Shown one piece after another: positions 29,728 to 64,000 of a stretch of 64,000 nucleotides of DNA. How positions within the stretch are numbered: position 1 is the stretch's first letter; the number at the start of each line of letters is the position of its first letter. The notes under the pieces were generated by a model. The model did not search any database. It was not told the DNA's origin and saw only the letters and a program-made list of their open reading frames with translations. Made by a program: the position numbers and the translations under genes. The stretch lies in assembly GCF_056746865.1 (NCBI RefSeq), contig NZ_CM163382.1; one strand, written 5' to 3'.

Positions 29728-29900
29728 GCTCTTCTCCTAATTTCATTTTTGAATTTGGAGTCCGGGTCATGATGTATAACTATTTCCTGACCAGACCAAA
29801 CTGGCGCTAAGAATACTCACGAAAAAAGGATTAATCCTAAAGATTAGGTGAAATAACACAAAAGTTTCTGTAAGTGAGAACTTGAGGTTTTTTATTAACA
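29728..29900 (-). promoter_or_regulatory. Pcad promoter region (CadC binding sites expected)
   Basis: AT-rich region immediately upstream of cadB within the cadC-cadB intergenic space; inferred from known operon architecture. Confidence 0.45.
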
Positions 29901-46833: not shown

Positions 46834-47188
46834 TTTTGTTACCTCGCGCTGTCAATGGAAGTAGTACCTCATCCGATATCTGAAAATGTTTTCCGGTGGA
46901 TGTTACAGCGAATTTCATGTAAGACATGTTGTTGTCGGTATTGTTCAGTACTGTGCGTTGTGAGCGTATTCGTTATCAGACAGAGGGGCAGGGAACAAAT
47001 GGCGTAAACGGACATCTCAGTGCCTGAGAAACAGTACAGGTCAGGCCATCATGGCCTGCAAACAGAGCCCTGGCGACCCCGTGGCCGAAAACGAAACAAT
47101 AACCCGCGCGCAGTGCGAGGAATCCGGATGTGAAGCAATCAGCAGGTAATATTAATGGCAGGACCAGCAGGTTCTTTAAACAAACGAA

Positions 47189-47951
47189 GGTGGTGACTCC
47201 AATTAGTAGAACATATATTTTTCGATAAAGGCACCGATGACTTTTTCATGAAGTTCTACAGAGCGCGAGAAACAGATAGTTCTGCGGGCCAGACGTTTGA
47301 TTCGGGTTCTCAGAGGTAGATGTTGCGCTCAATGCGCTGAGTAAAAATCTTACCAGTCAGATGCTTCTCCTTCGGTAACTCTCTGGTGTAACTACCCCAT
47401 TCGTCAGTGGTCAACATACCGATGGTAAAAGGGCAAGCAGCGCCAGCAATTCACGACAGGTTTAATCAGTCCGTAGGCCAAAAGTGTAGGCCAGAACGCC
47501 ACCAGTTTTCGTGTTGTACGTGTACCAGAGCCAGTGCTGTCGCGCTTTACTGCCGACAAAACTCCATTGCTCATCAAGTTCGCAGATGAGTGCCATATCA
47601 GCATGAGCGACCGGGTATGACGTTATTCTTCGTGGCGAGAGTTTTTTAAAGTCCGGATGACAGTATTAATGCCGATTTTCAGCGTACGGGCAGTATCGCG
47701 AACTCCGGCACCGTTGAAAGCCATTTCAGTGATTTGCTCTTTAACTCCCGGTTTACGGGCCTCGTAACGGTAAGTGAGCTGAAGCACTCGATGACAGTCA
47801 CGGCAGCGAAATCGATCATGTCCTTTGGGTTCTTCCCGTGACGGTAAACCTGAACGGACTGGCAACAGGAGCAATGAAGGTTAACTGTGACCATGAAAGA
47901 ACCTTAAAAGTGGCTATTATACTCCTAATTCAACTAATTGGAGTCATTACC
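47189..47951 (-). mobile_element. IS1-family insertion sequence (divergent isoform), insB apparently degenerate
   Basis: Terminal inverted repeats ggtggtgactccaatt (47189-47204) and ggtaatgactccaatt (rc of 47936-47951); length 763 bp; insA intact; conserved TTAAAAAAC frameshift motif at insA end; InsB-like translation needs at least two further frame changes. Confidence 0.75.
47623..47874 (-). CDS. insA: IS1-family InsA (zinc-finger/HTH transposition regulator)
   Basis: 83-aa ORF with CxxC…CxxC zinc finger and C-terminal HTH resembling IS1 InsA (…GINTVIRTLKNS…). Confidence 0.8.
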   Translation of the reverse strand: MLLLPVRSGLPSREEPKGHDRFRCRDCHRVLQLTYRYEARKPGVKEQITEMAFNGAGVRDTARTLKIGINTVIRTLKNSRHEE

Positions 47952-49329
47952 GTATTCATAATGGATTAGGTTCAGCAGTTGCTGAAGTGCTTGTAGAAAC
48001 TTGTCCTGTGCCCATGCGTCGGGTGGGGGTTAAAGAGCGGTATGGCCAGGTTGAAACTCAGGACTTTTTACAGAGAGAGTACGGGTTAACCGCGCAAGCT
48101 ATTGTGGCGGCAGCCAGAGAGCTATTGTAATTCATGGAGTTTGTTTACCATTCTGTTTTTCTTAAAAGTGAGTGTCTGTGCGGTCACTAAACTCGGTAAT
48201 AAAGCAGTTCATTGCAGGATAAGAAGCGTTTGGTTGTGTCGTTTTACCGTAAGAACCGACCGCCGTATGTATCCATTAAGCCAGTATTGGTAACGTAGGT
48301 GCCCACCTTTTCAAACTGGTGGGCGCCTGTTATGGAGCAAAAACATTATCCGCAGAACCCCGCAGATCATTTTCAAATGAGTTAAACTTCAAATGGTTAA
48401 ACTGGCTTTGCAACCAGGAGCCTCTGTTGCCCGTATTGCCCGGGAACACGATATCAATGATAACCTCCTGTTCAAATGGCTCAGACTCTGGCAGAACGTA
48501 AGGTAAAGGGAGATGAAAAAGGCAATAGCAGAACTGAGTGACAGTGAAACCATTCTGGCGTACAGGGTTGGATGGTGAAACTGATAAAAAAACCCTCTGA
48601 AAATTCTGTCAGAGGGTGTAGTCAAAAATGGTAGATATTTACGATGCAGTAATGCTTTCACTCCGGTAATTAATTTCCGTGATTAACTGCTTTCGATCAA
48701 TAAAGGAATTGCAAAAGTGTGATCTTGTTCACGACATCGTGGATGATAATATGCCTGATGTCTGAATCCGGAAACAGTGCTCTGGCGGGTTTCATGTGAA
48801 GTTGACGGATAAAAAATCCGCACGACCAGACAGACGTGCGGTTTACGAAATTCGTAACAAGAGGCTTTTCTACGGATCACGTGGTGCGTGCCACGTGAAA
48901 TTTTTGTAGCGCAAAATGTGCAATGTGTAAATACAAGGAAGGAAAAAAGTTAAATTGGTAGAAGTCCATGCCTGCCACATGTACGTCTGCATTCCTCGTT
49001 TTGAACAGAATTCTCACCAGACATCGTGAATTTCTCATTCAATCATCAGAGATATTAACCAGGATTTTTATTGTTTTGTGATATCAGCAGTGCAGGTATA
49101 CAGACGTTAAAGTAATCAGGTTTATTATAACCACCTTTACAAAGTTGTATATGTTTATAATTTAATGATTTTAATGCCAGTCGTTTTCTGCTGCTTAAAT
49201 TGAGGTCGCATATTATACACAATAATATTCTTAGCATTATTAAATTAATAAGAGAGGATTCTTATCACTGTATTTTTGCTCCGCACTACCGTTCTGGCTG
49301 GTGAAGTAATAATACAGGAGAATAACAGA

Positions 49330-50871
49330 ATGCTTAAAAGACGTGATGCTTTTTTAAAGAAAAGCGCGCTGGCAGTGAGTGTGGCCCTGCTGCTCTCGGC
49401 TCAGGCTCAGGCTGTTTTGACAGGGCCTGTTGATGGTAATTCTTCCAGCTTACTGATTGGAGAAAACTCTTTTATTACGAATTTAACTGGTACAGTTAAT
49501 AACACTTTCCTTTTGGGAGGTGGCGCTTTTAACCTGGATTCACCAGGAAGTCTTCAGTTTGGCTCTTTTTCGGAAGTGTATAATTCTCCACACAGTGTCA
49601 CCCTGGGAAGGGATGCCGGTCAGGCTGAGTCAAAATATGGTGTTGCCATAGGTAAGAGCGCTGAGGTATTTAATTCACAGCATAGTGTTGCTATTGGGGG
49701 ATGGGCTGGAATAGAAAATTCTTCAGGCTCTGTAGCTCTGGGCCATGGCTCACAGGTGTCGGGAGAAAATAACGTGGTATCTGTTGGTGCCGGGCCTGAG
49801 GGATATGGAAAGAGTGTCAAAGGAGCACCGGAAACCCGCCGGATTATAAATGTGTCTGATGGTATCAATAACACAGATGCAGCGACGGTAGGGCAACTGA
49901 ATGAACGATTTGATGATGCACAGGTCTTTTTGTTGCAGACGAATGAAAGAATTGACGAGACAGATAAACGTCTTTCAACAGTTCATGCTGAACTCAGCAG
50001 GGATATTATTGCAGGCACATCGGCAGCGGTGACGTATACAGATGTAACAGCGCTTGCACTTCAGGATGAGATAAAGGATGGGACGAACAAAGTACGTGAT
50101 GAGTTGAAATCACAGGGAGACAGTCTGCGTGGTGAGATAGGCGGTGTATACAGAGATGCCCGTGCTCATACTGACAGTCAGGTCACAGCAGTACGTGATG
50201 AACTGAAGGCAGAGGGAGACAGTCTGCGCGGTGAGATAGGCGGTGTATACAGAGATGCCCGTGCTCATACTGACAGTCAGGTCACAGCAGTACGTGATGA
50301 ACTCAGCAGGGATATTATTGCAGGCACATCGGCAGCGGTGGCGTATACGGATGCATCTTCTCTTGCTCTTCAGGATGAAATAAAAGAAAAAGCGGATGAA
50401 ACAGTTCAGGTTTCCCGGGCTTATACAGATAAAAGTGTACGGGATGCCCGTAAAGAAGCGAAAAGCCAGGCAGAACATCTCAGCGATGTGCTTGTGAAGA
50501 ACAGGGCGCAGACGGATGCAGCAATAGCCTCAAATACAGCAGCGATAAGGAATAACAGTCATCGTCTGGATTTGACGGAAGCCTGGCAGAAGATGGCGAC
50601 AGAGAGAATGAATAATATGCAGGAGCAGATTAAAGAGAACCGGAAGGAGTTAAGGGAGAGTGCAGCCCAGAGCGCGGCACTGGCCGGTCTTTTCCAGCCA
50701 TACAGTGTTGGAAAATTTAACGCGACAGCAGCCGTTGGTGGTTACCGTGATGAGCAGGCCATTGCGGTGGGCGTGGGCTACCGTTTCACAGAGAATGTGG
50801 CAGGAAAAGTTGCAGTTGCTGCAGGTGGGTCATCCGCATCGTGGAATGCTGGTGTGAATTTTGAGTTCTGA
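49330..50871 (+). CDS. Trimeric autotransporter adhesin (YadA-like C-terminal anchor) with repeat-containing coiled-coil stalk
   Basis: ORF 49276..50871 trimmed to [28 protein letters not shown] (signal peptide); YadA-type head repeats (SVAIG/ VSVGAG), coiled-coil stalk, C-terminal beta-barrel anchor ending …AGVNFEF. Confidence 0.8.
50115..50312 (+). repeat. Tandem 99-bp (33-aa) direct duplication inside the adhesin stalk
   Basis: Units beginning gggagacagtctgcg at 50115 and 50214, encoding [30 protein letters not shown] twice; flanked by a second, more distant repeat pair ([12 protein letters not shown]…LALQDEIK). Confidence 0.8.
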
Positions 50872-50909
50872 CAGGTCAGGATTTAGATATCTGTCCCGGG
50901 GGGAGTCCC

Positions 50910-52248
50910 CATAAGCGCTAACTTAAGGGTTGTGGTATTACGCCTGATATGATTTAACGTGCCGATGAATTACTCTCACGATAACTGGTCAGCAATTCTG
51001 GCCCATATTGGTAAGCCCGAAGAACTGGATACTTCGGCACGTAATGCCGGGGCTCTAACCCGCCGCCGCGAAATTCGTGATGCTGCAACTCTGCTACGTC
51101 TGGGGCTGGCTTACGGCCCCGGGGGGATGTCATTACGTGAAGTCACTGCATGGGCTCAGCTCCATGACGTTGCAACATTATCTGACGTGGCTCTCCTGAA
51201 GCGGCTGCGGAATGCCGCCGACTGGTTTGGCATACTTGCCGCACAAACACTTGCTGTACGCGCCGCAGTTACGGGTTGTACAAGCGGAAAGAGATTGCGT
51301 CTTGTCGATGGAACAGCAATCAGTGCGCCCGGGGGCGGCAGCGCTGAATGGCGACTACATATGGGATATGATCCTCATACCTGTCAGTTCACTGATTTTG
51401 AGCTAACCGACAGCAGAGACGCTGAACGGCTGGACCGATTTGCGCAAACGGCAGACGAGATACGCATTGCTGACCGGGGATTCGGTTCGCGTCCCGAATG
51501 TATCCGCTCACTTGCTTTTGGAGAAGCTGATTATATCGTCCGGGTTCACTGGCGAGGATTGCGCTGGTTAACTGCAGAAGGAATGCGCTTTGACATGATG
51601 GGTTTTCTGCGCGGGCTGGATTGCGGTAAGAACGGTGAAACCACTGTAATGATAGGCAATTCAGGTAATAAAAAAGCCGGAGCTCCTTTTCCGGCACGTC
51701 TCATTGCCGTATCACTTCCTCCCGAAAAAGCATTAATCAGTAAAACCCGACTGCTCAGCGAGAATCGTCGAAAAGGACGAGTAGTTCAGGCGGAAACGCT
51801 GGAAGCAGCGGGCCATGTGCTATTGCTAACATCATTACCGGAAGATGAATATTCAGCAGAGCAAGTGGCTGATTGTTACCGTCTGCGATGGCAAATTGAA
51901 CTGGCTTTTAAGCGGCTCAAAAGTTTGCTGCACCTGGATGCTTTGCGTGCAAAGGAACCTGAACTCGCGAAAGCGTGGATATTTGCTAATCTACTCGCCG
52001 CATTTTTAATTGACGACATAATCCAGCCATCGCTGGATTTCCCCCCCAGAAGTGCCGGATCCGAAAAGAAGAACTAACTCGTTGTGGAGAATAACAAAAA
52101 TGGTCATCTGGAGCTTACAGGTGGCCATTCGTGGGACAGTATCCCTGACAGCCTACAAAACGCAATTGAAGAACGCGAGGCATCGTCTTAACGAGGCACC
52201 GAGGCGTCGCATTCTTCAGATGGTTCAACCCTTAAGTTAGCGCTTATG
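50910..52248 (+). mobile_element. IS186 (IS4 family), apparently intact, with ~10-bp target site duplication
   Basis: Termini CATAAGCGCTAACTTAAGGG (50910-) and inverted copy ending 52248; flanking direct repeat ggggagtccc at 50900-50909 and 52249-52258 within a GC-rich palindrome. Confidence 0.9.
50959..52077 (+). CDS. IS186 transposase
   Basis: 372-aa ORF MPMNYSHDNWSAILAHIGKPEELDTSARNAG… matching recalled IS186 transposase. Confidence 0.9.
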   Translation: MPMNYSHDNWSAILAHIGKPEELDTSARNAGALTRRREIRDAATLLRLGLAYGPGGMSLREVTAWAQLHDVATLSDVALLKRLRNAADWFGILAAQTLAVRAAVTGCTSGKRLRLVDGTAISAPGGGSAEWRLHMGYDPHTCQFTDFELTDSRDAERLDRFAQTADEIRIADRGFGSRPECIRSLAFGEADYIVRVHWRGLRWLTAEGMRFDMMGFLRGLDCGKNGETTVMIGNSGNKKAGAPFPARLIAVSLPPEKALISKTRLLSENRRKGRVVQAETLEAAGHVLLLTSLPEDEYSAEQVADCYRLRWQIELAFKRLKSLLHLDALRAKEPELAKAWIFANLLAAFLIDDIIQPSLDFPPRSAGSEKKN

Positions 52249-52281
52249 GGGGAGTCCCCCGGGATATAATGAGGTACAGAG

Positions 52282-52737
52282 ATGCTGGATATAATCCTGG
52301 CGACGAGAGATATTTATTTTGAAAAAGCCCTGCGAGAGGTATTTGGAACCGTAAGCAGTCGAATCAGATATATAGAAGATGCCATATCAGACAGAAGAAG
52401 GGTGCAGTCAGGCAGGTCATTCAGATATTATTTTGTATTCTGTGATGATGAGTATACAGATATTGTTCGTATTCTTTTTACCGGAGAGGCCTGCTGTATT
52501 CTGAATAAGTCGATGCTGAATCTGAGAGCGGCCGGAGGTGTGTTGACGCTGGAAGAGCGCAGAGCGGTACTGAACCGGTATTACAGAGGTTTAAGTATTG
52601 CGGAGATTACAGAAGAGACGGGGCAGAATGACAAGACGGTATACGGTCATCTTCGTCGTGCACTGCAGCGGTCTGGATTCCGGAAGGGGCGTTTTATAAA
52701 GGGGAGAGAAGCGGCGGGGGATTCAGGTGTTGAATAA
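52282..52737 (+). CDS. Putative transcriptional regulator with C-terminal LuxR/sigma-70 region-4-like HTH
   Basis: 151-aa ORF; C-terminal LTLEERRAVLNRYYRGLSIAEITEETGQNDKTVYGHLRRALQR; GAGG-like RBS (gaggtacagagATG). Confidence 0.6.
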   Translation: MLDIILATRDIYFEKALREVFGTVSSRIRYIEDAISDRRRVQSGRSFRYYFVFCDDEYTDIVRILFTGEACCILNKSMLNLRAAGGVLTLEERRAVLNRYYRGLSIAEITEETGQNDKTVYGHLRRALQRSGFRKGRFIKGREAAGDSGVE

Positions 52738-53053
52738 TGTATCTTATATTGTGATATCGGTGCTGCTGCTGTTATTTTTTGTTGTATTTGTGACGAATGG
52801 TTAAGAATAAAACATGAGTTGGTGATTATCAGGACAGGTTGCTTGTATATGAAGATAACAAAGGCGGCATTTATTTTTGCGCTGTCAGTGTGGAGTGTTG
52901 CTGTGATATGTCTTTTATTATTTGTACTGGTTGTTCTGGGATAGCCATAGTGAAATAAAAAGCTGTCTGAATTAAATTATTTTGAACACATATTTTAATT
53001 CTGCACTAAATTCAGAATGACCCTGTAAATAATTCTGTGTAACTGCCGCCGTA

Positions 53054-54261
53054 TTAAAGGTGCTCGCTAAGGCGGTCACCGAACTCGATAATAAAACGGC
53101 TCATTGCCAGCCGCCAGTTCTGGATTGGCATACTCCATTTTTTGACGCCGACTGTATCGCCAGATAAATCACTTTTCGCACCGAGTCGTCCGTTGGGAAC
53201 ACCTTGCGCTTCTTTATCGCCTGCCGAATGACACTGTTCAGCGATTCGATGGCATTCGTCGTGTAGATGGCCTTGCGGATATCCGGTGGGTAACCGAAGA
53301 AGGTGTTGAGATTTTCCCAGTGTGTGCGCCAGCTCTTGCTGATTTGCGGGTATTTTTCATCCCAGACGCCTGCAAACTTATCCAACGCCATCAACGCCGT
53401 TTCCTCTGTCGGGGCCTGATATACCGCTTTCAGCCCGCTGGTGACGGCTTTGTAATCCTTCCACGACACGAATTTCAGGCTGTTGCGCACCATATGGATG
53501 ATGCAGAGCTGAATATGCGTCTGCGGGTACACGCTATTTATCGCTTCCGGGAAGCCTTTCAGGCCGTCCACGAAGGCGATAAGGATATCGTTCAGGCCGC
53601 GATTTTTCAGTTCCGTCAGTACATTCAGCCAGAACTTTGCACCTTCATTTTCGGCCAGCCACATATCCAGCAGCTCTTTCTGACCGTCGGTATTGATGCC
53701 CAGCGCGAGGAACACCGCTTTGTTAATGACACTCCCGCTGTGACGAACCTTAACCACAATACAGTCAAGATAAACAATGGGATACAGTGCATCCAACGGT
53801 CGGTTTTGCCATTCAGAGACCTGTTCTTTAACCGCATCGGTCACTTTGGATATCAGCGTGGGCGAGACATCGGCGTCGTACATTTCTTTGAAGGCTGAGG
53901 TAATTTCGCGGGTAGTCATCCCTCTGGCATACAGCGCCAGGATCTGGTTGTCCATGCCGGTAATGCGGGTCTGATTTTTCTTCACCAGTTGTGGTTCGAA
54001 GGTATTTTCACGGTCACGCGGCGTGTTAAGTTCGATCTCGCCATCATCGCACAATACCGTTTTTGACGAGTAGCCATTACGGGTATTAGAGCCTGATTTA
54101 GGAGCATTTTTCTCATGACCTAGATGGTCAGTCAGTTCTGCATTGAGCGCCGTTTCGACGGTAAGCTTTGTCAACATGCGTGAAAACTGGTTGAGGTCGG
54201 CTTCGGTTTTAAGGCCTTTGGCCAGTTCAGCCGCAAGGACTTTAAGTTTCTTTTCGTCCAT
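53054..54261 (-). pseudogene. IS256-family transposase, frameshifted near C-terminus
   Basis: ORF 53101..54261 matches IS256/mutator-type transposase; conserved C-terminal tail KKWSMPIQNWRLAMSRFIIEFGDRL is in another frame after a T/A homopolymer near 53117-53127. Confidence 0.8.
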
Positions 54262-54429
54262 CGTTTGCCTGTCTCCGTTGTTGGAGTGAACATATCAAAA
54301 ACAGGCAATTACACAATTTTAATTACAGTCTCTTCAGAATGGGTAATCAGTGACCGTCCTGACGGTCACTTTAAAGAAAATGCATATTACACAGAATGGT
54401 AAACAGGCTCAACATAGAGCTTGAAGGTA

Positions 54430-55058
54430 GTTGTTGCCTTGTAATAAAATGTGTGATTCATAGACATCGTTTCAATTTTCTCAGTTCAAGTTCAGGCTTG
54501 TAATTCTGTTCCTGTATATGCTCTTCATTGGGCTGATAGTTTGCATGAACGGCATCGGAGTATGGTGTTTTCTCAGCAAGTTCAAAGTAGCGTTCCATCG
54601 GAGTTTTACCGTTGTGAGCGCTATGAGGACGTTCCCTGTTATAGTAATGCTACCATTCTGCTAGCAATCCCTTCAGGTCATCAGCAGAAAGATCTACGGT
54701 AGCGTAAAACTCAGCTTTGTCTGTCTTTTGGGAACGTCCAACCTTTATTACATCAGGCGACAACTACCTTGAAAAACGCCGTTACTCACCGATCCCCTTC
54801 ACGGTAATACGCACTATTGCCAGTGAGATTGAATGAAGTCGTTTTAACTCGCTTTGAATACGTCTTGCACCCAGATTTCGCTGAGAACGTAACTTCCAGA
54901 ATCAGAGCGACTTCGCAAGTGCTGGTTTTCGTTGATGGTGAACGCTTGGAGCGACGGCTGTAGCTTTCCAGACCAGCGATGCCCTGAGCCAGATATCTGC
55001 GCCACCATTTACACAATGTGGGCCGAGAAGTGCCACAGTGACGGCATACAAATGTCAA
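54430..55058 (-). pseudogene. IS481/IS3-superfamily transposase remnant (N-terminal HTH fragment and C-terminal integrase-core fragment)
   Basis: 54786..55058 encodes …RPTLCKWWRRYLAQGIAGLESYSRRSKRSP… (HTH); 54430..54660 encodes …YYNRERPHSAHNGKTPMERY… (DDE core tail); internal deletion and in-frame stop. Confidence 0.5.
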
Positions 55059-55101
55059 CGACGGATGAAAAGTGGCTCTTACGCAACCTGGATGGAGATT
55101 T

Positions 55102-56119
55102 TCATGCCAGTGGACTCATGACCCTCTGCCTGAGTAGTTCAAATCCGGCTCGACCATACATCTGGCCTTTCAGCATTTTTAGTCGATTTACATGACTTTC
55201 GACAACCCCCATTATTCCAGCGACTGCTGATTGCCTCACATATAGCCGCAGCATCAGCTGCCATCCTTGCAGCCACGCGCCGAAGTTACCACTTTCTCGT
55301 TGCTCTTTTAACCACTCCCTCCATGGGGCCAGAAGTCCTCGCTCTGGAGGCCGGGTTGACATTTCAGGGAATGTTCCTGAACACACCCAGAGACTGACTG
55401 TCACACGTGATAAGCCTGTAATACGGGATATTTCCCCTGAACCCACATCCCTTGTTATGTAGTGCCATAACCTCTGTCCAACGCTGATGCCGTTTTTGGC
55501 GGGTTTGCTGTTTAAGGCGTTCCGGACGACGGAGCGATGCTACAGGCACAGACAGTACTGGCTTAGGTGATTTCTTTGGTGACAACCCACTGGCAACAAG
55601 ACGTATCAGAGGCATCTGTCTGTACATCATTCGTTCAGGCGCATCGCCAATATTTTTTAGCAGGTGCCATCGATCAGCTATCTGTCTGGCCTGAGGTGCA
55701 CCTTCACGTGCTGCTGTCGCATAGACTCCGCCACGGTCACGTGAGACAACCTGTATTTCCGGATATTTTCTGAACCAGGTCGCCAGCGTACTCTGATCGC
55801 AACCGGGAAGCAGGACGAGGGGACGGTGAGTATCAAGATTGACGATTAACGTGCCGTAATGGTGGCCCCGATGCCACGCCCACTCATCAATACCGACATG
55901 AGGCGCGCCCGACTGTTTCGTCTCCGGGGTATTAATAACCCTGCGAAGAAGAGTATCAGCACTGCAACGTAGCCCCACTGCCGTTGCTGCCTGTTTCCCG
56001 GCCTCACCTCCGGCTATTAATCCCGGTTGACGTTGTAAATTTTGTAACGCCTGTGAATACTGCTGATGTGAACTGTGAAGGGAGGCTGAGACTCGGCAAA
56101 ATTTTTCGTTAACAGGCAA
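55102..56119 (-). pseudogene. ISL3-family transposase, N-terminally truncated and frameshifted
   Basis: ORFs 55364..56119 and 55102..55446 in different frames; motifs DRWHLLKNIGDA and C-terminal VNRLKMLKGQMYGRAGFELLRQRV typical of ISL3 family. Confidence 0.6.
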
Positions 56120-56545
56120 GGGTTATGGCAGCACCAGAGTAAGATGCGTCTGGGCTGAGCAGGGTAAGTGCTGTATCTGGAGGCGATGGCATCTATGAAC
56201 TGAGTAGCTGTGCTTAAGGTATTCAACACATAGTGCTGTTTTGCATTTTCCGGGGAGATGGAGGGTTATATACCGTCAGAGCTAATAACTTCTTGACCGT
56301 ATTGCCATCAGCAAAGTAACCGTAGAAATCTCTTAAGTGAGTGTATTAAGTTACCCATAACTTAAAACGGCTTCACTGGTAAGCCTCATACATTTTCTTT
56401 CACTCAAGTTGTGGAAGCCCTCTTTCGTCGAACCGTTCGTTATAAATGCAAAAGATGTATGCTGACCCTCTCAAAGCCGAAATCATACAGAGTTTATGGA
56501 AAAGTGGTGAACCAGTCGCGTCGAAAGTAGATTGAGCTCATATCA

Positions 56546-57739
56546 TTACTTGCTTTTGCAGCAGCGCCAGATAAATACAGTCACCATGCTAAATAATACA
56601 GCGGCAAATAATGCCATCACAATCAGTGCTATTGCGACACCTGTTTTCGACACCAATGGTACCAACAACGCGCAAAGCCCATAGCCAAGTGTGTGACTGC
56701 AAGCGAGCCAGCCCGCGCCTGCGCCGTCGGCCAGCTTATCATTCAGTAAAAGTTGATAAGCGGGGGTTGCCAGAGCAGCTCCAAATGACAGCACTGCACA
56801 GCCTAGGTAAAACAACCATAGCTGTTCAGCGAGCATGATAGCCAGACCACTACTCATCAACACCCCGGCACTCAGGAGCAGAGCCACTGGAGTCAGGCGC
56901 TGTGGACGGAGTACCACGAACTGCGCGATAAGCGCAGCTATTGCGGACAGCCCCAACAACCACGCTACCTGTTGGCTAATAGTGGTGGTATCAGTGGCGA
57001 ACTGGCGAGTAAGGGCTGGAGAAAGTCCAAGCTGCATCATGCTCATTGCCGCAGCCAGTAACATTGCGCAAAGCAGATAAGGCAGGAAATCCCGCTTCAG
57101 GCTGACGCTCTTGCGCTCCGGTGTGGGCTGTGGTGGTGTGCCGGGCAACCGCAGAAGCATCACCAGTGCCAGCGCTGGCGCTGCCATCAGCATCCACACT
57201 GGCGCCAGAGGGTGAATGACCAACATTGCCGCCGCGCACAGCGGCCCGAATAGCCTGCCGCAGCTCAGGCCGGAGCTGATGGTTGCCAGAGCGGCCATGC
57301 GATTCCCATCTCCCGCTCTCTGCAATGCCCAGACCTGACAGGCTGGCACCATTGCTGACACGGTCAGACCGTAGACGATCCGGGCGATGATTAATATTCC
57401 CAACCCCACCGCTTTTGTTACGGCACCGGTAGCCATCAGCACGCTTCCCAGCCCAAGCAGGGTAAAGCTTACGCCATATCCTCCCAGAGCCCACAGCACC
57501 ACAGTCTTACTGCCAGTAAGGGAAATTTGCTTTCCCCACCATGGGGAAGATGGCAGAAACAGCATTGAGCCCAGCATCAGCAGGGCAGCCCATACAGACA
57601 GACTCAGATTTGTCTGTATGACCAGAACAGGGAGTACAACCAGCAGACCGTTCTGTCCGATACCGAGAAGACCGGCACTGAACGCCAGTGGCCAGCAGGA
57701 CAGGGTTTTTTGGGGCGTATCTTCGATCTTAGATGACAT
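56546..57739 (-). CDS. shiF: MFS transporter ShiF (aerobactin-locus associated)
   Basis: 397-aa 12-TM ORF divergent from iucA, as in aerobactin islands. Confidence 0.85.
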   Translation of the reverse strand: MSSKIEDTPQKTLSCWPLAFSAGLLGIGQNGLLVVLPVLVIQTNLSLSVWAALLMLGSMLFLPSSPWWGKQISLTGSKTVVLWALGGYGVSFTLLGLGSVLMATGAVTKAVGLGILIIARIVYGLTVSAMVPACQVWALQRAGDGNRMAALATISSGLSCGRLFGPLCAAAMLVIHPLAPVWMLMAAPALALVMLLRLPGTPPQPTPERKSVSLKRDFLPYLLCAMLLAAAMSMMQLGLSPALTRQFATDTTTISQQVAWLLGLSAIAALIAQFVVLRPQRLTPVALLLSAGVLMSSGLAIMLAEQLWLFYLGCAVLSFGAALATPAYQLLLNDKLADGAGAGWLACSHTLGYGLCALLVPLVSKTGVAIALIVMALFAAVLFSMVTVFIWRCCKSK

Positions 57740-57813
57740 TGTAATGTTTCAACACCATGTATTAATTGTGTTTATTTGTAAAATTAATTTTTCTGACAAT
57801 AACATTTCTCATT

Positions 57814-57832
57814 GATAATGATAATCATTATT
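57814..57832 (+). promoter_or_regulatory. Fur box in aerobactin promoter
   Basis: gataatgataatcattatt matches Fur consensus GATAATGATAATCATTATC at 18 of 19 positions; 40 bp upstream of iucA start. Confidence 0.8.
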
Positions 57833-57874
57833 GACATAATTGTTATTATTTTACTGTGTAGGAGCTGTTTGATT

Positions 57875-59599
57875 ATGATCCTGCCCTCTGAAAAATCCGC
57901 CACAGATGTGGCTGCGCAGTGCTTCCTGAATGCCTTGATTCGTGAAACCAAAGACTGGCAACTGGCGGAATACCCGCCAGACGAATTGATTATCCCGCTG
58001 GACGAACAGAAGTCGCTCCATTTCAGAGTGGCTTATTTCTCCCCAACCCAGCATCACTGCTTTGCATTTCCTGCTCATCTGGTCACGGCATCAGGCAGTT
58101 ATCCTGTCGATTTTACCACTCTCTCCCGGCTTATTATTGACAAGCTCCGGCATCAACTTTTTCTGCCAGTTCCCCTCTGCGAAACTTTCCACCAACGCGT
58201 GCTGGAAAGCTACGCCCATACGCAACAGACAATTGATGCCCGCCATGACTGGGCCATCCTGCGTGAGAAAGCGTTGAATTTTGGCGAGGCTGAGCAGGCA
58301 CTGCTGACAGGACACGCTTTCCACCCTGCACCTAAGTCTCATGAACCGTTTAACCGCCAGGAAGCTGAACGATACCTGCCTGACATGGCACCTCACTTCC
58401 CGCTGCGGTGGTTTTCGGTGGATAAAACGCAAATCGCTGGTGAAAGTCTGCATCTTAACCTTCAACAGCGGTTGACGCGATTTGCCGCAGAAAATGCGCC
58501 CCAGTTACTCAACGAATTAAGTGACAATCAATGGCTGTTCCCGCTGCACCCGTGGCAGGGAGAATATCTTTTGCAGCAGGTGTGGTGCCAGGCACTTTTT
58601 GCTAAAGGACTTATCAGAGACTTAGGCGAGGCCGGCACGTCGTGGCTGCCGACCACCTCTTCCCGCTCCCTCTACTGTGCTACCAGCCGCGATATGATCA
58701 AGTTCTCCCTGAGCGTTCGGCTGACCAACTCCGTCCGTACTCTGTCTGTGAAAGAGGTGGAGCGAGGAATGCGCCTGGCACGTCTGGCGCAAACCGACGG
58801 CTGGCAGATGCTACAGGCCCGCTTCCCTACTTTCCGGGTAATGCAGGAGGACGGCTGGGCCGGGCTGCGCGATCTTAACGGCAACATCATGCAGGAAAGT
58901 TTGTTTTCCCTGCGTGAAAACCTGCTGCTGGAGCAGCCGCAAAGCCAGACCAACGTTCTGGTTTCCCTGACTCAGGCCGCACCGGATGGCGGTGATTCGC
59001 TGCTGGTTTCGGCGGTAAAACGCCTGAGCGATCGCCTCGGTATCACTGTGCAACAGGCCGCCCACGCATGGGTCGATGCTTACTGTCAGCAGGTGCTGAA
59101 GCCTCTGTTTACGGCTGAAGCGGATTACGGCCTGGTGCTGCTGGCGCATCAGCAAAATATTCTTGTGCAGATGCTTGGGGATCTGCCGGTCGGATTTATT
59201 TACCGTGACTGCCAGGGCAGCGCGTTTATGCCTCACGCGACAGAGTGGCTCGATACCATTGACGAGGCGCAGGCGGAAAATATTTTCACCCGTGAGCAGT
59301 TGCTGCGCTATTTCCCTTATTACCTGCTGGTTAACTCCACTTTTGCCGTAACTGCTGCGCTGGGTGCTGCCGGGCTGGACAGCGAAGCGAATCTGATGGC
59401 TCGTGTACGAACATTGCTGGCTGAAGTGCGTGACCAGGTGACTCATAAAACCTGTCTCAACTATGTTCTGGAAAGTCCGTACTGGAACGTAAAAGGTAAC
59501 TTTTTCTGTTATCTGAACGATCATAACGAGAACACCATCGTTGACCCTTCGGTGATCTATTTTGATTTCGCTAACCCGCTGCAGGCTCAGGAGGTCTGA
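57875..59599 (+). CDS. iucA: Aerobactin synthetase IucA (NIS synthetase)
   Basis: ORF 57812..59599 trimmed to MILPSEKSATDVAAQCF… with GGAG RBS; IucA/IucC family. Confidence 0.93.
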   Translation: MILPSEKSATDVAAQCFLNALIRETKDWQLAEYPPDELIIPLDEQKSLHFRVAYFSPTQHHCFAFPAHLVTASGSYPVDFTTLSRLIIDKLRHQLFLPVPLCETFHQRVLESYAHTQQTIDARHDWAILREKALNFGEAEQALLTGHAFHPAPKSHEPFNRQEAERYLPDMAPHFPLRWFSVDKTQIAGESLHLNLQQRLTRFAAENAPQLLNELSDNQWLFPLHPWQGEYLLQQVWCQALFAKGLIRDLGEAGTSWLPTTSSRSLYCATSRDMIKFSLSVRLTNSVRTLSVKEVERGMRLARLAQTDGWQMLQARFPTFRVMQEDGWAGLRDLNGNIMQESLFSLRENLLLEQPQSQTNVLVSLTQAAPDGGDSLLVSAVKRLSDRLGITVQQAAHAWVDAYCQQVLKPLFTAEADYGLVLLAHQQNILVQMLGDLPVGFIYRDCQGSAFMPHATEWLDTIDEAQAENIFTREQLLRYFPYYLLVNSTFAVTAALGAAGLDSEANLMARVRTLLAEVRDQVTHKTCLNYVLESPYWNVKGNFFCYLNDHNENTIVDPSVIYFDFANPLQAQEV

Positions 59600-60547
59600 A
59601 TGTCTGGGGCAAACATTGTTCACAGCGGATATGGACTGCGCTGTGAAAAACTCGACAAGCCTCTGAATCTTGGCTGGGGGCTGGACAATAGCGCGGTGTT
59701 GCACTGGCCCGGGGAGCTGCCAACAGGATGGCTGTGCGACGCGCTGGATCAGATATTTATCGCCGCACCACAACTTTCAGCAGTGGTTCTTCCCTGGTCC
59801 GAATGGTGTGAGGAGCCACAGGCGCTGACGCTTTTCGGACAGGTACAAAGCGACATTATCCATCGTTCCGCTTTCTGGCAGTTACCGTTATGGCTGAGTT
59901 CTCCGGCAAACCGGGCCTCCGGTGAAATGGTTTTTGATGCAGAGCGTGAGATTTATTTCCCGCAGCGCCCCCCCCGTCCGCAGGGTGAAGTTTATCGTCG
60001 TTACGATCCACGCATTCGCAGGATGCTGAGTTTCCGCATTGCCGATCCCGTTTCTGATGCAGAACGTTTCACTCGCTGGATGAACGATCCGCGCGTTGAG
60101 TATTTCTGGGAGCAAAGTGGCTCACTGGAGGTACAGATCGCCTATCTGGAACGCCAGCTCACCAGTAAACATGCATTCCCGCTGATTGGTTGTTTCGACG
60201 ATCGGCCGTTCAGTTATTTCGAAATCTACTGGGCGGCGGAAGACCGCATTGGTCGCCACTATTCGTGGCAGCCCTTTGACCGTGGCCTGCATCTGCTGGT
60301 TGGTGAACAGCAATGGCGCGGAGCCCACTATGTGCAAAGCTGGCTGCGCGGGGTGACACATTACCTGCTGCTGAATGAGCCACGTACGCAGCGCACAGTA
60401 CTGGAGCCACGCACCGATAACCAGCGCCTGTTCCGCCATCTTGAGCCTGCGGGATACCGGACAATTAAAGAGTTCGACTTCCCACATAAACGCTCGCGCA
60501 TGGTGATGGCGGATCGTCATCACTTCTTCACGGAGGTCGGTCTGTAA
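59600..60547 (+). CDS. iucB: N6-hydroxylysine acetyltransferase IucB
   Basis: 315-aa ORF in operon position 2. Confidence 0.93.
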   Translation: MSGANIVHSGYGLRCEKLDKPLNLGWGLDNSAVLHWPGELPTGWLCDALDQIFIAAPQLSAVVLPWSEWCEEPQALTLFGQVQSDIIHRSAFWQLPLWLSSPANRASGEMVFDAEREIYFPQRPPRPQGEVYRRYDPRIRRMLSFRIADPVSDAERFTRWMNDPRVEYFWEQSGSLEVQIAYLERQLTSKHAFPLIGCFDDRPFSYFEIYWAAEDRIGRHYSWQPFDRGLHLLVGEQQWRGAHYVQSWLRGVTHYLLLNEPRTQRTVLEPRTDNQRLFRHLEPAGYRTIKEFDFPHKRSRMVMADRHHFFTEVGL

Positions 60548-62289
60548 TGAATCACAAAGACTGGGATTTGGTCAACCGCCGCTTGGTGGCAAAAATGTTG
60601 TCTGAGCTGGAGTATGAGCAGGTTTTCCACGCGGAATCTCAGGGCGATGACCGCTACTGCATTAACCTGCCGGGAGCACAATGGCGCTTCATCGCTGAAC
60701 GTGGTATCTGGGGCTGGCTCTGGATTGATGCTCAAACTCTGCGCTGCGCGGACGAGCCAGTACTGGCTCAGACGCTGCTGATGCAGCTAAAGCAGGTACT
60801 GTCAATGAGCGATGCAACCGTTGCTGAGCATATGCAGGATTTGTATTCCACGCTGCTGGGCGACCTGCAACTGCTGAAAGCCCGTCGCGGGCTGAGCGCC
60901 AGTGACCTGATTAATCTTAGTGCCGACCGCCTGCAATGCCTGCTGAGCGGTCATCCTAAATTCGTTTTTAATAAAGGTCGCCGTGGCTGGGGTAAAGAGG
61001 CGCTGGAACGATATGCGCCAGAGTATGCCAACACCTTTAGACTGCACTGGCTGGCGGTAAAACGTGAACATATGATCTGGCGCTGTGATAACGAGATGGA
61101 TATTCATCAGTTGTTGACGGCCGCAATGGATCCGCAGGAGTTTGCCCGCTTCAGTCAGGTCTGGCAGGAAAACGGACTGGATCATAACTGGCTGCCGCTG
61201 CCTGTACATCCGTGGCAGTGGCAGCAAAAAATCGCCACCGACTTCATCGCTGATTTTGCCGAAGGCAGGATGGTGTCTCTCGGCGAGTTTGGCGACCAGT
61301 GGCTCGCCCAGCAGTCGCTGCGTACCCTGACCAACGCCAGTCGCCGGGGTGGGCTGGATATCAAGCTGCCGCTGACCATCTACAACACCTCATGCTACCG
61401 GGGGATTCCTGGCAGATACATCGCTGCCGGACCACTGGCTTCACGCTGGCTACAACAGGTTTTTGCGACCGACGCTACCCTGGTGCAAAGCGGTGCAGTG
61501 ATCCTTGGTGAACCGGCTGCAGGCTATGTCTCCCATGAAGGCTATGCCGCGCTTGCCCGGGCTCCCTATCGCTACCAGGAAATGCTTGGTGTTATCTGGC
61601 GGGAGAATCCGTGCCGCTGGCTGAAACCGGATGAAAGTCCGGTTCTGATGGCAACACTGATGGAGTGCGACGAAAACGATCAGCCGCTGGCAGGCGCATA
61701 TATAGACCGCTCCGGGCTGGACGCTGAAACCTGGCTTACGCAACTGTTCCGGGTGGTCGTGGTTCCTCTGTATCACCTGCTTTGCCGCTACGGTGTCGCG
61801 CTTATTGCACATGGACAAAATATAACGCTCGCCATGAAAAAGGGGGTTCCACAGCGTGTTCTGCTGAAAGACTTCCAGGGCGATATGCGGCTGGTGAAAG
61901 AAGAGTTCCCCGAAATGGACTCTTTGCCTCAGGAGGTTCGTGATGTTACATCCCGCCTGAGTGCGGACTACTTAATCCATGATTTGCAGACGGGTCACTT
62001 CGTGACAGTACTGCGTTTTATTTCGCCACTGATGGTTCGTCTTGGCGTACCTGAACGGCGATTTTATCAACTGCTGGCAGCAGTGTTGAGTGATTACATG
62101 AAAAAACATCCACAAATGTCAGAGCGTTTTGCGCTTTTCTCACTTTTCAGGCCACAAATCATTCGCGTGGTGCTGAACCCGGTAAAACTGACCTGGCCTG
62201 ATCTGGATGGCGGCAGCCGCATGCTGCCGAATTACCTTGAGGATCTGCAAAATCCGCTGTGGCTGGTAACTCAGGAATATGAATCATGA
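60547..62289 (+). CDS. iucC: Aerobactin synthetase IucC
   Basis: 580-aa NIS synthetase paralogous to IucA. Confidence 0.93.
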   Translation: MNHKDWDLVNRRLVAKMLSELEYEQVFHAESQGDDRYCINLPGAQWRFIAERGIWGWLWIDAQTLRCADEPVLAQTLLMQLKQVLSMSDATVAEHMQDLYSTLLGDLQLLKARRGLSASDLINLSADRLQCLLSGHPKFVFNKGRRGWGKEALERYAPEYANTFRLHWLAVKREHMIWRCDNEMDIHQLLTAAMDPQEFARFSQVWQENGLDHNWLPLPVHPWQWQQKIATDFIADFAEGRMVSLGEFGDQWLAQQSLRTLTNASRRGGLDIKLPLTIYNTSCYRGIPGRYIAAGPLASRWLQQVFATDATLVQSGAVILGEPAAGYVSHEGYAALARAPYRYQEMLGVIWRENPCRWLKPDESPVLMATLMECDENDQPLAGAYIDRSGLDAETWLTQLFRVVVVPLYHLLCRYGVALIAHGQNITLAMKKGVPQRVLLKDFQGDMRLVKEEFPEMDSLPQEVRDVTSRLSADYLIHDLQTGHFVTVLRFISPLMVRLGVPERRFYQLLAAVLSDYMKKHPQMSERFALFSLFRPQIIRVVLNPVKLTWPDLDGGSRMLPNYLEDLQNPLWLVTQEYES

Positions 62290-63563
62290 AAAAAAGTGTC
62301 GATTTTATTGGTGTAGGGACAGGGCCATTTAATCTCAGCATTGCTGCGTTGTCACATCAGATCGAAGAACTGGACTGTCTCTTCTTTGATGAACATCCTC
62401 ATTTTTCCTGGCATCCGGGTATGCTGGTACCGGATTGTCATATGCAGACCGTCTTTCTGAAAGATCTGGTCAGTGCTGTTGCACCTACAAATCCCTACAG
62501 CTTTGTTAACTATCTGGTGAAGCACAAAAAGTTCTATCGCTTCCTTACAAGCAGACTACGTACAGTATCCCGTGAAGAGTTTTCTGACTACCTCCGCTGG
62601 GCTGCTGAAGATATGAATAACCTGTATTTCAGTCATACCGTTGAAAACATTGATTTCGATAAAAAACGTCGATTGTTTCTGGTGCAAACCAGCCGGGGAG
62701 AATATTTTGCCCACAATATCTGCCTTGGTACAGGAAAACAACCTTATTTACCACCCTGTGTGAAGCATATGACACAATCCTGTTTCCATGCCAGTGAAAT
62801 GAATCTTCGTCGGCCGGACCTTAGTGAAAAACGGGTAACCGTGGTTGGTGGAGGACAGAGTGGTGCAGACCTGTTCCTTAATGCATTACGCGGGGAATGG
62901 GGAGAAGCGGCGGAAATAAACTGGATCTCCCGGCGGAATAATTTTAACGCACTGGATGAGGCTGCTTTTGCTGATGAGTATTTTACACCTGAATATATTT
63001 CAGGCTTCTCCGGACTGGAGGAAGATATTCGCCATCAGTTACTGGATGAGCAGAAAATGACATCGGATGGCATCACTGCCGATTCTTTACTGACCATTTA
63101 TCGTGAGTTGTACCACCGTTTTGAAGTTCTGAGAAAACCAAGAAATATCCGTCTGCTACCCAGCCGCTCGGTAACAACTCTGGAAAGTAGTGGTCCTGGC
63201 TGGAAGTTGCTGATGGAGCATCATCTGGATCAGGGCAGGGAGAGCCTGGAAAGTGATGTGGTGATTTTCGCCACAGGTTACCGTTCTGCGTTGCCACAAA
63301 TACTTCCCTCACTGATGCCGCTGATCACCATGCACGATAAGAACACCTTTAAAGTGCGTGATGACTTCACTCTGGAATGGAGTGGCCCGAAAGAGAACAA
63401 CATCTTCGTGGTCAACGCCAGTATGCAAACCCATGGCATCGCCGAACCTCAGCTCAGCCTGATGGCATGGAGATCTGCACGTATTCTTAATCGTGTAATG
63501 GGACGTGATTTATTCGATCTCAGTATGCCGCCCGCCCTGATTCAGTGGCGCAGCGGCACCTAG
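62286..63563 (+). CDS. iucD: L-lysine N6-monooxygenase IucD (FAD/NADPH)
   Basis: 425-aa ORF with N-terminal GxGxxN dinucleotide motif (IGVGTGPFNLS). Confidence 0.93.
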   Translation: MKKSVDFIGVGTGPFNLSIAALSHQIEELDCLFFDEHPHFSWHPGMLVPDCHMQTVFLKDLVSAVAPTNPYSFVNYLVKHKKFYRFLTSRLRTVSREEFSDYLRWAAEDMNNLYFSHTVENIDFDKKRRLFLVQTSRGEYFAHNICLGTGKQPYLPPCVKHMTQSCFHASEMNLRRPDLSEKRVTVVGGGQSGADLFLNALRGEWGEAAEINWISRRNNFNALDEAAFADEYFTPEYISGFSGLEEDIRHQLLDEQKMTSDGITADSLLTIYRELYHRFEVLRKPRNIRLLPSRSVTTLESSGPGWKLLMEHHLDQGRESLESDVVIFATGYRSALPQILPSLMPLITMHDKNTFKVRDDFTLEWSGPKENNIFVVNASMQTHGIAEPQLSLMAWRSARILNRVMGRDLFDLSMPPALIQWRSGT

Positions 63564-63644
63564 GGAAAACGCAGCCGGAGGCTGCTTCTTTAACTCGCTA
63601 CACAGCATCTTTGGGCTGATTTTTTCCGCCCGTGTGGAGGAATA

Positions 63645-64000
63645 ATGATGATAAGCAAAAAGTATACGCTTTGGGCTCTCAACCCACTGCTTCTTACCAT
63701 GATGGCGCCAGCAGTCGCTCAACAAACCGATGATGAAACGTTCGTGGTGTCTGCCAACCGCAGCAATCGCACCGTAGCGGAGATGGCACAAACCACCTGG
63801 GTTATCGAAAACGCCGAACTGGAACAGCAGATTCAGGGCGGCAAAGAGCTTAAGGACGCACTGGCTCAGCTGATCCCTGGCCTTGACGTCAGCAGCCGGA
63901 GCCGCACCAACTACGGTATGAATGTGCGTGGCCGCCCGCTGGTCGTGCTGGTTGACGGCGTGCGTCTCAACTCTTCACGTACCGACAGCCGACAACTGGA
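63645..64000 (+). CDS. iutA: Ferric aerobactin TonB-dependent receptor IutA (5' part only; continues past window end)
   Basis: MMISKKYTLWALNPLLLTMMAPAVAQQTDDETFVVSANRS… signal peptide plus TonB-box region; open to window end. Confidence 0.85.
   Translation, partial: MMISKKYTLWALNPLLLTMMAPAVAQQTDDETFVVSANRSNRTVAEMAQTTWVIENAELEQQIQGGKELKDALAQLIPGLDVSSRSRTNYGMNVRGRPLVVLVDGVRLNSSRTDSRQL

Follow-up and report, generated by a model that had tools for sequence, protein, structure and literature searches.

Insertion sequence remnants where a YadA-like adhesin cassette meets a ColV-type aerobactin module in a mosaic Escherichia coli island

Background

Insertion sequences (IS) can delete or rearrange the DNA next to them by intramolecular transposition, which is a general property of these elements. 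In Escherichia coli, the islands integrated at pheV (GI-pheV) have been described as gene modules separated by IS (PMC11537424). An IS-marked module swap of the type reported here is already known as an ordinary element of island architecture. No description of the specific junction studied here was found in the literature.

In this work we focused on a 64-kb stretch of E. coli DNA (the window), in which a cluster of damaged IS separates an adhesin cassette from an aerobactin module; in strain SMS-3-5 the corresponding block falls inside the published coordinates of GI-pheV. The initial annotation had interpreted this cluster as a recombination scar and as the likely route of entry of the aerobactin genes. 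We placed the boundary between the YadA-like adhesin cassette and the ColV-type aerobactin-sit block at base resolution and distinguished the participants in the joint (IS481 and ISL3) from mere passengers (the ISEc39-like element and IS186). The main value of this is bookkeeping, and the accepted picture of pathogenicity-island assembly is unchanged.

Methods

IS elements were assigned to families by their transposases and termini. The IS256 family was recognized by a Mutator-type DDE transposase of about 400 aa (PF00872), imperfect terminal inverted repeats and a target-site duplication of 8-9 bp, and isoforms of ISEc39 by at least 95% nucleotide identity to the named element, RefSeq-labelled copies being used for the comparison. 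The IS481 family was defined by IS481 homology with an N-terminal helix-turn-helix (HTH) and an rve DDE core, the IS3 family by transposase homology to its members and two overlapping ORFs with a programmed -1 frameshift, and IS186/IS421 by an intact DDE_Tnp_1 transposase with terminal repeats and a duplication of 10-13 bp at a palindromic, G+C-rich target. ISL3 elements were recognized by a DDE_Tnp_ISL3 transposase (PF01610), and their ends by terminal inverted repeats containing GGCTCTT and an 8-bp target duplication.

A position was considered a module boundary of a mosaic island when the same arm was joined to different modules at one breakpoint position. A composite transposon was defined as two copies of the same IS flanking a cargo, with a duplication around the unit and occurrence in more than one context. 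The probes for the donor scans were the 95-bp spacer next to the aerobactin module and the ISL3 terminal repeat.

Results

The locus contains the following features, given in window coordinates.

~47189-47951, minus strand: defective IS1-family element, seen as an alignment gap against BEN2908, insA broken
49276-50871, plus strand: YadA-like trimeric autotransporter adhesin gene, first gene of the cassette (ORF and RefSeq annotation)
50911-52247, plus strand: intact IS186/IS421 (IS4 family), a recent, strain-variable simple insertion
52282-52737, plus strand: sigma-factor-like HTH gene, second gene of the cassette (Pfam Sigma70_r4_2)
53019-56442: IS cluster, about 97% IS-derived
53019-54332, minus strand: ISEc39-like IS256-family element, full length with both inverted repeats and one frameshift, in the 3' flank of the adhesin cassette
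54333-54411, no strand: final 79 bp of the adhesin cassette, within which lies the hairpin GTGACCGTCCTGACGGTCAC (window compared with BEN2908 and strain 144)
54412-54439, no strand: orphan spacer of 28 bp separating the left end of IS481 from the cassette boundary
54440-55052, minus strand: IS481-family fragment (ISEc18-like), left inverted repeat kept, right end cut at the ISL3 terminus
55053-56442 (end approximate), minus strand: ISL3-family element (ISL3a), multiple frame changes, no target duplication
56443-56537, no strand: orphan spacer of 95 bp between ISL3a and the aerobactin module
56538-64000, plus strand: aerobactin module (shiF, iucA-D, iutA), running past the window edge; the shared module extends to window-equivalent ~65880
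56546-57739, minus strand: shiF, within the aerobactin module

The cluster is thus made up of the ISEc39-like copy, the IS481-family fragment and the ISL3-family copy. Every element named by the initial annotation was found: three transposase genes of different families, all broken, lie within about 3 kb, and the intact IS186 and the defective IS1 are close by, both upstream of the cluster. The assignments to IS256, ISL3 and IS481 were retained, and the IS3 alternative proposed for the second gene was rejected, as the best matches are single-ORF IS481-family elements. The ISL3 element ends at ~56442, about 320 bp beyond the end first given, and the suggested partner copies, searched within the 64-kb window, were found for none of the four IS elements.

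The stretch from 52990 to 56545 (3,556 bp) is present with 99.86-100% identity and zero gaps in PK8276, F11, XDL, ECCNB12-2 and SMS-3-5, and in these five independent assemblies the transposase genes stay broken, none being intact. In PK8276, whose genome is nearly identical, about two dozen more transposase remnants follow within ~30 kb downstream, and the IS density of the stretch is not exceptional for this island. On plasmids no IS256/IS481/ISL3 cluster was found, the best plasmid match consisting of unrelated, separate IS copies, and a plasmid origin of the cluster was rejected. A search of the gap for structured RNAs using Rfam gave none at E<=0.1, and scans for promoters and terminators showed no excess over shuffled sequence.

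The adhesin cassette, composed of the YadA-like gene and the sigma-factor-like HTH gene (Sigma70_r4_2, E=2.2e-7), is present in 183 complete E. coli genomes, only about 50 of which have the IS cluster together with aerobactin of this lineage. Homology among the window, BEN2908 and strain 144 stops after '...AACAGGCTC', where each sequence enters a right arm unrelated to the other two, so that 54411/54412 is a three-way breakpoint. With these three right arms, and two at 55052/55053, both positions are module boundaries as defined above. The cassette boundary lies 28 bp away from any IS, and BEN2908 and strain 144 have the same boundary without an IS there. As no IS end coincides with the edge at 54411, one or more of the joining events took place without these IS elements. 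The 28-bp spacer had no match in any compared context.

The ISEc39-like copy shows 96.05% nucleotide identity to copies named ISEc39 by RefSeq. Its 386-aa ORF matches Transposase_mut (PF00872) with E=3.4e-114 over profile positions 12-373 of 379, its terminal repeats agree at 22 of 29 positions (counted by eye), and the 8-bp target duplication TTCAGAAT is found at 53011-53018 and 54333-54340, with single-copy empty sites in BEN2908 and strain 144. One base was lost at ~53138-53143, where a run of seven A became six (A6), and the resulting frameshift replaces the last ~28 residues of the ~402-aa transposase. The assignment to IS256 holds, and the gene is defective.

IS186 is likewise delimited by a target duplication, GGGGGAGTCCCC (~12 bp), at 50899-50910 and 52248-52259, in a G+C-rich palindrome. 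Its 370-aa transposase, which matches DDE_Tnp_1, is identical to the intact RefSeq protein WP_001300563.1. The element is missing from XDL, ECCNB12-2 and SMS-3-5, XDL providing the empty site, and has the opposite orientation in F11. The target duplications, and the empty sites in other strains, identify the ISEc39-like copy and IS186 as simple insertions and hence as bystanders. In the IS1-family copy, insA is divided between reading frames, with stops, and RefSeq flags the homologous copy as 'frameshifted; internal stop'; compared with BEN2908, this copy stands in place of ~5.3 kb bearing LacI, PTS and transketolase genes. An IS3-family element has inserted into the same gap in SFE8 and 2020N21-246, and the gap between the modules keeps receiving IS elements.

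The IS481 fragment is 92-96% identical at the nucleotide level to ISEc18 and to the IS481-family copy of pMAR2. Of a 323-aa transposase it keeps only residues 23-104, frameshifted, and 229-323, with a stop; it lacks the catalytic middle (DDE core, residues 105-228), the first 22 codons and the right inverted repeat. At the DNA level the central ~385 bp are replaced from ~54746 by a filler of 60-90 bp, which ends at 54805 by protein alignment and at 54836 by DNA alignment, and the right 114 bp, which hold that repeat and those 22 codons, are gone. HTH_28 scored over and HTH_32 under the Pfam cut-off. The left repeat (54440/54450-54474) is the sole terminal repeat left, and the pair of repeats with a target duplication is not found. 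Judged from these features the fragment is a remnant of the IS481 family, to which its homology assigns it, and is not a functional member because the DDE core is absent.

In ISL3a at least three frame changes were found, and residues 367-493 of a 539-aa relative are absent; compared with the relative in JJ1886, a form of ~1.76 kb, 347 bp are missing at 55286/55287. DDE_Tnp_ISL3 was matched with E=2.3e-17 over only profile positions 1-137 of 240, which places the element in the ISL3 family, and the region of the canonical C-terminal motif is kept in another frame. The 44-bp left inverted repeat (55053-55096) is intact and the right one (~56399-56442) degenerate. The flanks CATACAAA and ATAAATGC form no target duplication, and within the 64-kb window there is a single occurrence of the 28-bp ISL3 terminal sequence.

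IS481 homology ends at 55052/55053, precisely at the start of the 44-bp ISL3 repeat, and no remainder of IS481 was found past ISL3. A simple insertion of ISL3 into IS481 was rejected, there being neither an 8-bp duplication nor IS481 sequence beyond ISL3. Strains 2020N21-246 and CFSAN061770 contain the left arm of the window at 99.7-99.8% identity, sharing its A6 frameshift and the base at which IS481 is truncated, joined to the opposite end of a different, inverted ISL3 copy, which is 91.8% identical to ISL3a and has both repeats intact; their right arm is a carbamate-kinase/fdrA module in place of aerobactin. Strain 144 carries an ISL3 copy of this second type with yet another right flank. 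Since the ISL3 copies of the window and of strain 144 both lack a target duplication, no simple ancestral ISL3 insertion was identified.

By these alignments, 55052/55053 is demonstrably a real exchange point between island variants, the direction of change being unpolarised. The ISL3 copies are ~92% identical and oppositely oriented, and the two arrangements therefore did not arise by a single homologous crossover between IS interiors; they require a break at or inside the ISL3 terminal repeat.

The aerobactin cluster is 98.7% identical to that of the ColV plasmid pPSUO78_1 and 96.1% to that of EC958; against the plasmid the interior matches at 99-100% and each terminal 500 bp at 92-93%. We infer from this that it shares a lineage with ColV-plasmid aerobactin. 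Inactivation of iucD, suggested by a RefSeq 'frameshifted' flag, was rejected, as the 425-aa ORF is intact and EC958 bears the same flag. The edges of the module are not IS ends, and between ISL3 and shiF lie 95 bp that match nothing outside this lineage in the collections searched. Among 5,426 genomes and 72,556 plasmids we found no donor with ISL3-shiF; scans of 100,044 species-representative genomes with exact 24-mers and 23-mers, aimed at a donor in other species, were also empty, exact matching giving a weak negative. Given these non-IS edges and the missing donor, entry of aerobactin via the IS cluster, presented as likely at the outset, is no more than plausible.

Discussion

In a mosaic E. 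coli island, the stretch is probably a fixed and inert scar that occupies the intergenic gap separating two cargo modules, and a present function of anything in it is unlikely. What stands of the original scar reading is that the cluster lies exactly between two separable modules and contains an exchange point at 55052/55053; the IS256-family copy and IS186 do not belong to the joint, as they are ordinary transpositions.

In the history that we favour, the adhesin cassette is a portable unit with its right edge at 54411/54412, as the three-way comparison shows, and an IS481-family element lies 28 bp past this edge. The alignments further show the joining of an ISL3 terminus to the IS481 interior, with no target duplication and with loss of the rest of IS481. 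The mechanism may have been an adjacent deletion or rearrangement mediated by an IS end, or recombination within the 44-bp ISL3 terminal repeats. Right arms were exchanged at the ISL3 terminus, aerobactin-sit being found in the window and carbamate-kinase/fdrA in other strains. The ISEc39-like element transposed normally into the 3' flank of the cassette and later lost one base in its A run, and IS186 and, in other strains, the IS3-family element inserted later into the same tolerant gap. Several observations count against this explanation: no variant was found in which IS481 is intact at this site, the ISL3 copies of the window and of strain 144 lack a target duplication, the cassette edge coincides with no IS end, the ISL3 copies of the two variants are only ~92% identical and oppositely oriented, and the 28-bp and 95-bp spacers and the IS481 filler fall outside its account.

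Alternatively, the IS may simply have piled up in a cost-free gap, the modules having been joined by a mechanism unrelated to IS, such as homologous recombination in backbone common to the islands, or a site-specific event at 54411 that has escaped recognition. The ISEc39-like, IS186 and IS3-family copies, all simple insertions into the gap, agree with this, as do the boundary that BEN2908 and strain 144 share with no IS adjoining, the non-IS edges of the aerobactin module and the equally IS-ridden remainder of the island. We nevertheless consider it unlikely, as IS481 is cut exactly at the ISL3 terminus and the same cut end occurs with two ISL3 copies and different cargo, a pattern hard to obtain unless ISL3 ends took part.

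It is far less probable that a ~13-kb unit with shiF-iuc-iutA once transposed into IS481 as an ISL3-bounded composite transposon, bracketed by the left repeat of ISL3a at 55053 and a solo ISL3-type repeat by sitD (window-equivalent 68173-68200, inverted). The sequence at 55053-55080 does match that by sitD over 28 bp in inverted orientation (26/28 bases), and ATACA is common to the flanks directly outside both repeats, but the flanking 8-mers agree at only 5 of 8 positions and form no duplication, and the sequence past the solo repeat is not IS481. Moreover, ISL3a has no detectable nucleotide similarity to the ISL3 copy downstream of iutA, and the unit occurs in only one context among the same 5,426 genomes and 72,556 plasmids; this reading was rejected. 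The idea that the frameshifts are homopolymer errors in truly intact genes is already refuted: the ISEc39-like frameshift does sit in a homopolymer, but a sequencing artefact is excluded because the five independent assemblies match without gaps and share the A6, which is also present in variant loci L022 and L025, and IS481 and ISL3 have each lost hundreds of bp.

A further reading is speculative. There is perhaps a small chance that an ISL3-family element of ~1.4 kb with near-perfect 44-bp repeats, apparently a deletion derivative without an intact transposase gene, is a recurrent swap point, at whose termini entire cargo modules (aerobactin-sit, carbamate-kinase/fdrA and an MFS/LacI/nucleoside-hydrolase block) have been exchanged among variants of a single island family. 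Such swaps could proceed with transposase supplied in trans or by recombination inside the terminal repeats and, if true, would give a specific, testable mechanism by which a ColV-type aerobactin cluster becomes chromosomal. Among extraintestinal pathogenic E. coli (ExPEC) from poultry and humans, the A6 frameshift together with the IS481-ISL3 fusion offers a stable marker by which this island lineage can be followed.

Compared with known systems, the locus resembles the GI-pheV islands, in which cargo modules (adhesin, shiF-iucABCD-iutA) are parted by IS or their remnants and exchanged between variants (PMC11537424). It differs from the intP4.1 GI-pheV of CFT073/ST131, whose aerobactin genes are 96% identical overall and 89-93% identical across shiF and iucA, and the partners in GI-pheV are sat, iha and pap, whereas here they are the YadA-like cassette and sitABCD. 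With ColV/IncF plasmids such as pPSUO78_1 it shares shiF-iucABCD-iutA (98.7%) and sitABCD (94.9%), with IS1 and other transposase genes near. However, the plasmid sit genes lie on the shiF side by crcB, whereas in the window lineage they lie beyond iutA, inverted; the plasmid has no IS256/IS481/ISL3 cluster, and homology to it ends 8 bp past the shiF stop codon.

As in IS-mediated adjacent deletions, an IS end is fused to the interior of a truncated neighbour without target duplication, the intervening sequence is lost and one IS terminus has several alternative flanks. In contrast to such cases, no intermediate or ancestral configuration was recovered, and recombination in the 44-bp repeats would give the same products.

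The island of the APEC strain BEN2908 has the same backbone of ProQ/FinO, YadA-like and sigma-like HTH genes, at 94-99% identity, and supplies the empty site for the ISEc39-like insertion. Its identification as the selC island AGI-3 was rejected, since the flanking tRNA-Leu gene lies by ahr and idnK, which we take to be the leuX position on the E. coli map. In contrast to the window, BEN2908 lacks the IS cluster and aerobactin, its right arm carries genes for a c-type lysozyme inhibitor, a nanE-like protein and a PTS, and it keeps the 5.3 kb that IS1 replaced in the window.

Decayed transposase genes between the adhesin and aerobactin modules

In the E. coli chromosomal genomic island represented by the window, the adhesin cassette (a YadA-like gene and a sigma-like HTH gene) and the aerobactin module (shiF-iucABCD-iutA) are separated by three IS remnants:

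53019-54332, IS256-family element, ISEc39-like (96.05% identity to copies labelled ISEc39)
up to 55052, IS481-family fragment (95.4-95.8% identity to the pMAR2 copy, 89-92% to ISEc18)
55053 to ~56442, ISL3-family element (86-90% identity to a copy fixed in many E. coli chromosomes)

The three decayed transposase genes proposed in the initial annotation are all real, with frameshifts, stops and deletions seen in the IS256-, IS481- and ISL3-family copies; the middle one, described as "IS481/IS3-like", belongs to IS481 and not to IS3. The 386-aa ISEc39-like ORF matches Transposase_mut (Pfam, E=3.4e-114), and comparison with an intact 403-aa relative and two ISEc39 copies revealed A6 in place of A7 at ~53138-53143, replacing the last ~28 residues. 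Of the IS481 transposase, residues 229-323 (interrupted by a stop) and 23-104 (frameshifted) are all that is left; in the element, ~385 bp at the centre are swapped for 60-90 bp of filler, and the last 114 bp are gone, with them the right inverted repeat and the start codon. The ISL3 element lacks 347 bp at 55286/55287, has at least three frame changes and keeps the DDE_Tnp_ISL3 profile for the first 137 of 240 positions only. Since the 3,556 bp at 52990-56545 were found gap-free and at 99.86-100% identity in five independent assemblies, the defects are genuine and fixed, and none of the fragments proved intact on re-sequencing. The intact IS186 and defective IS1 mentioned with them were likewise recovered, the IS186/IS421 transposase being identical to an intact RefSeq protein and the IS1-family copy being broken.

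The filler (54746-54836) stands where the IS481 catalytic core belongs. Short matches to it, at 90-100% identity, occur at unrelated sites (beside an ISEc39 copy in STEC1589, near an ISEc12 end in F11, close to cbtA genes and in the BEN2908 leuX island), and it may be part of a small repeated element. The IS1-family element (47189-47951) occupies the place of 5.3 kb in E. coli BEN2908 (L011 4019-9304) encoding LacI, PTS IIA/IIB/IIC and two transketolase genes, of which the window keeps a transketolase fragment only; this looks like an IS1-associated deletion.

Insertions without a role in joining

The ISEc39-like copy retains both inverted repeats within a perfect 8-bp duplication (TTCAGAAT), and its uninterrupted target was found in BEN2908 and strain 144; it arose by ordinary transposition into sequence that was already there. 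IS186 is bordered on both sides by a ~12 bp duplication, its target being a G+C-rich palindrome; XDL, ECCNB12-2 and SMS-3-5 lack it, and F11 has it in the opposite orientation. SFE8 and 2020N21-246 carry an intact IS3-family element in the same gap. The ISEc39-like, IS186 and IS3-family insertions show a gap tolerant of IS elements, with no sign of joining. A second IS256-family fragment lies beyond sitABCD, outside the window (L001 41610-42347, window-equivalent ~73.6-74.4 kb), with 92% identity to 53536-54147, on the same strand and ~19.5 kb downstream; it is a potential partner copy, and the intact target duplication of the upstream copy argues against past recombination between the two.

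Right edge of the adhesin cassette

If the ISEc39-like copy is disregarded, the window, BEN2908 and strain 144 are homologous 3' of the sigma-like gene until '...AACAGGCTC' at 54411, beyond which three unrelated right arms follow:

Window: IS481, then aerobactin
BEN2908: c-type lysozyme inhibitor, nanE-like gene, PTS genes
Strain 144: YaiO and glycosyltransferase genes

A 28-bp orphan (54412-54439) precedes the IS481 left end. The conserved cassette also holds an unannotated small ORF (52819-52944, + strand), located 3' of the sigma-like gene and before the ISEc39 target site. Its product is a very hydrophobic peptide (read from an internal ATG, MKITKAAFIFALSVWSVAVICLLLFVLVVLG), and the local GC skew reaches unusually high values (0.33-0.39). 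The YadA-like gene contains internal tandem repeats (49700-50400) and its annotated length ranges from 1,110 to 1,542 nt across strains, which suggests repeat-number variation in the stalk.

The IS481/ISL3 exchange point

The 44-bp ISL3 terminal repeat (TGTCAACGACGGATGAAAAGTGGCTCTTACGCAACCTGGATGG) starts precisely where IS481 homology ends (55052/55053); no target duplication was found at this junction and no IS481 remainder on the far side of ISL3. In E. coli 2020N21-246 and CFSAN061770 the left arm is 99.7-99.8% identical to the window's and has both A6 and exactly the same IS481 truncation; the cut end is joined there to a different ISL3 copy, through its opposite terminus (1,417 bp, inverted, with two intact repeats and 91.8% identity to the window ISL3). 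This copy is followed by a carbamate-kinase/fdrA module, without aerobactin, and recurs in strain 144 with the same left flank and a third right flank. As the same IS481 cut is joined to different ISL3 copies, and the ISL3 right flanks vary, ISL3 termini are recurrent breakpoints. From these alignments, 55052|55053 is where variants with and without aerobactin exchanged their right arms. The scar and module boundary proposed initially thus hold; of the five IS elements mentioned, two were involved in the joint. With the copies in opposite orientations, a single homologous crossover inside ISL3 is ruled out; an end-mediated event, or recombination within the ISL3 terminal repeat, would account for the exchange.

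The ~1.4-kb ISL3 form (window 55053-56442; L022 9001-10417; L024 14001-15417) lacks 347 bp of its JJ1886 relative and exists as at least two diverged copies (~92% identical), one with perfect 44-bp terminal repeats, suggesting a deletion derivative that has spread and may have been mobilised in trans. PK8276 carries a second, 91.5% identical copy of the sigma-like gene's downstream sequence (L019 ~29100-29830, window-equivalent 106.1-106.8 kb), without the ISEc39 insertion. It is joined to the opening 384 bp of the other ISL3 copy, and these to a segment from the vicinity of a LysR gene, in inverted orientation; this is debris of a further ISL3-associated rearrangement in the same island.

The aerobactin side

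Homology to ColV-plasmid and ST131-type chromosomal clusters starts only at 56538, 8 bp beyond the shiF stop codon, and ends at ~65880 (window-equivalent). The cluster shows 98.7% identity to the ColV plasmid pPSUO78_1 (interior 99-100%, each terminal 500 bp 92-93%) and 96.1% to EC958. sitABCD, 94.9% identical to the plasmid copy, lies on the opposite side and inverted in the window island. The 95 bp from ISL3 to 56538 had no match beyond this lineage in the collections searched. A plasmid-related origin of the cluster is likely; its entry through the IS elements, the route initially favoured, is unproven, the event having left no record in the sequence.

RefSeq flags iucD (62286-63563) as frameshifted in every genome of the lineage and in EC958. 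The window gene is an uninterrupted 425-aa ORF, equal in length to the plasmid-annotated gene; the flag looks like an annotation-model artefact rather than inactivation. Compared with EC958, an ISL3-family pseudogene 3' of iutA (L001 33889-35196, window-equivalent ~65.9-67.2 kb) stands as a discrete insertion: in EC958 the 127 bp flanking the site are contiguous with iutA, and a 96%-identical fragment of the element lies ~2.6 kb upstream of shiF.

Distribution and comparison with known islands

The chromosomes of PK8276, B771, GF4 and one other record match 52000-57000 at 100% identity, and 46991-64000 is 99.9% identical to PK8276, whose RefSeq gene order is:

In-window part: IS1 pseudogene, transketolase fragment, transposase fragment, YadA-like gene, IS421, sigma-like HTH gene, IS256 pseudogene, "integrase core" fragment, ISL3 pseudogene, MFS transporter (shiF), iucABCD, iutA
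Past the window end: second ISL3 pseudogene, IS1 fragment, sitDCBA, IS110, IS200 and IS256 fragments, sodC

The same block in SMS-3-5 (3,255,984-3,280,668) falls within the published GI-pheV interval (3,197,159-3,289,098; PMC11537424). The IS cluster is present in ~50 of 5,426 complete genomes, and its remnants already carry pseudogene annotation in ~50 RefSeq genomes. IS debris is denser still in the downstream part of the island. E. coli pathogenicity islands are usually described as modules with IS elements between them, and the working definition of a GI-pheV module is an IS-separated unit (PMC11537424). The scar is ordinary, already known biology, to which we add, modestly, the base-level positions of the joints and the finding that ISL3 termini were used repeatedly.
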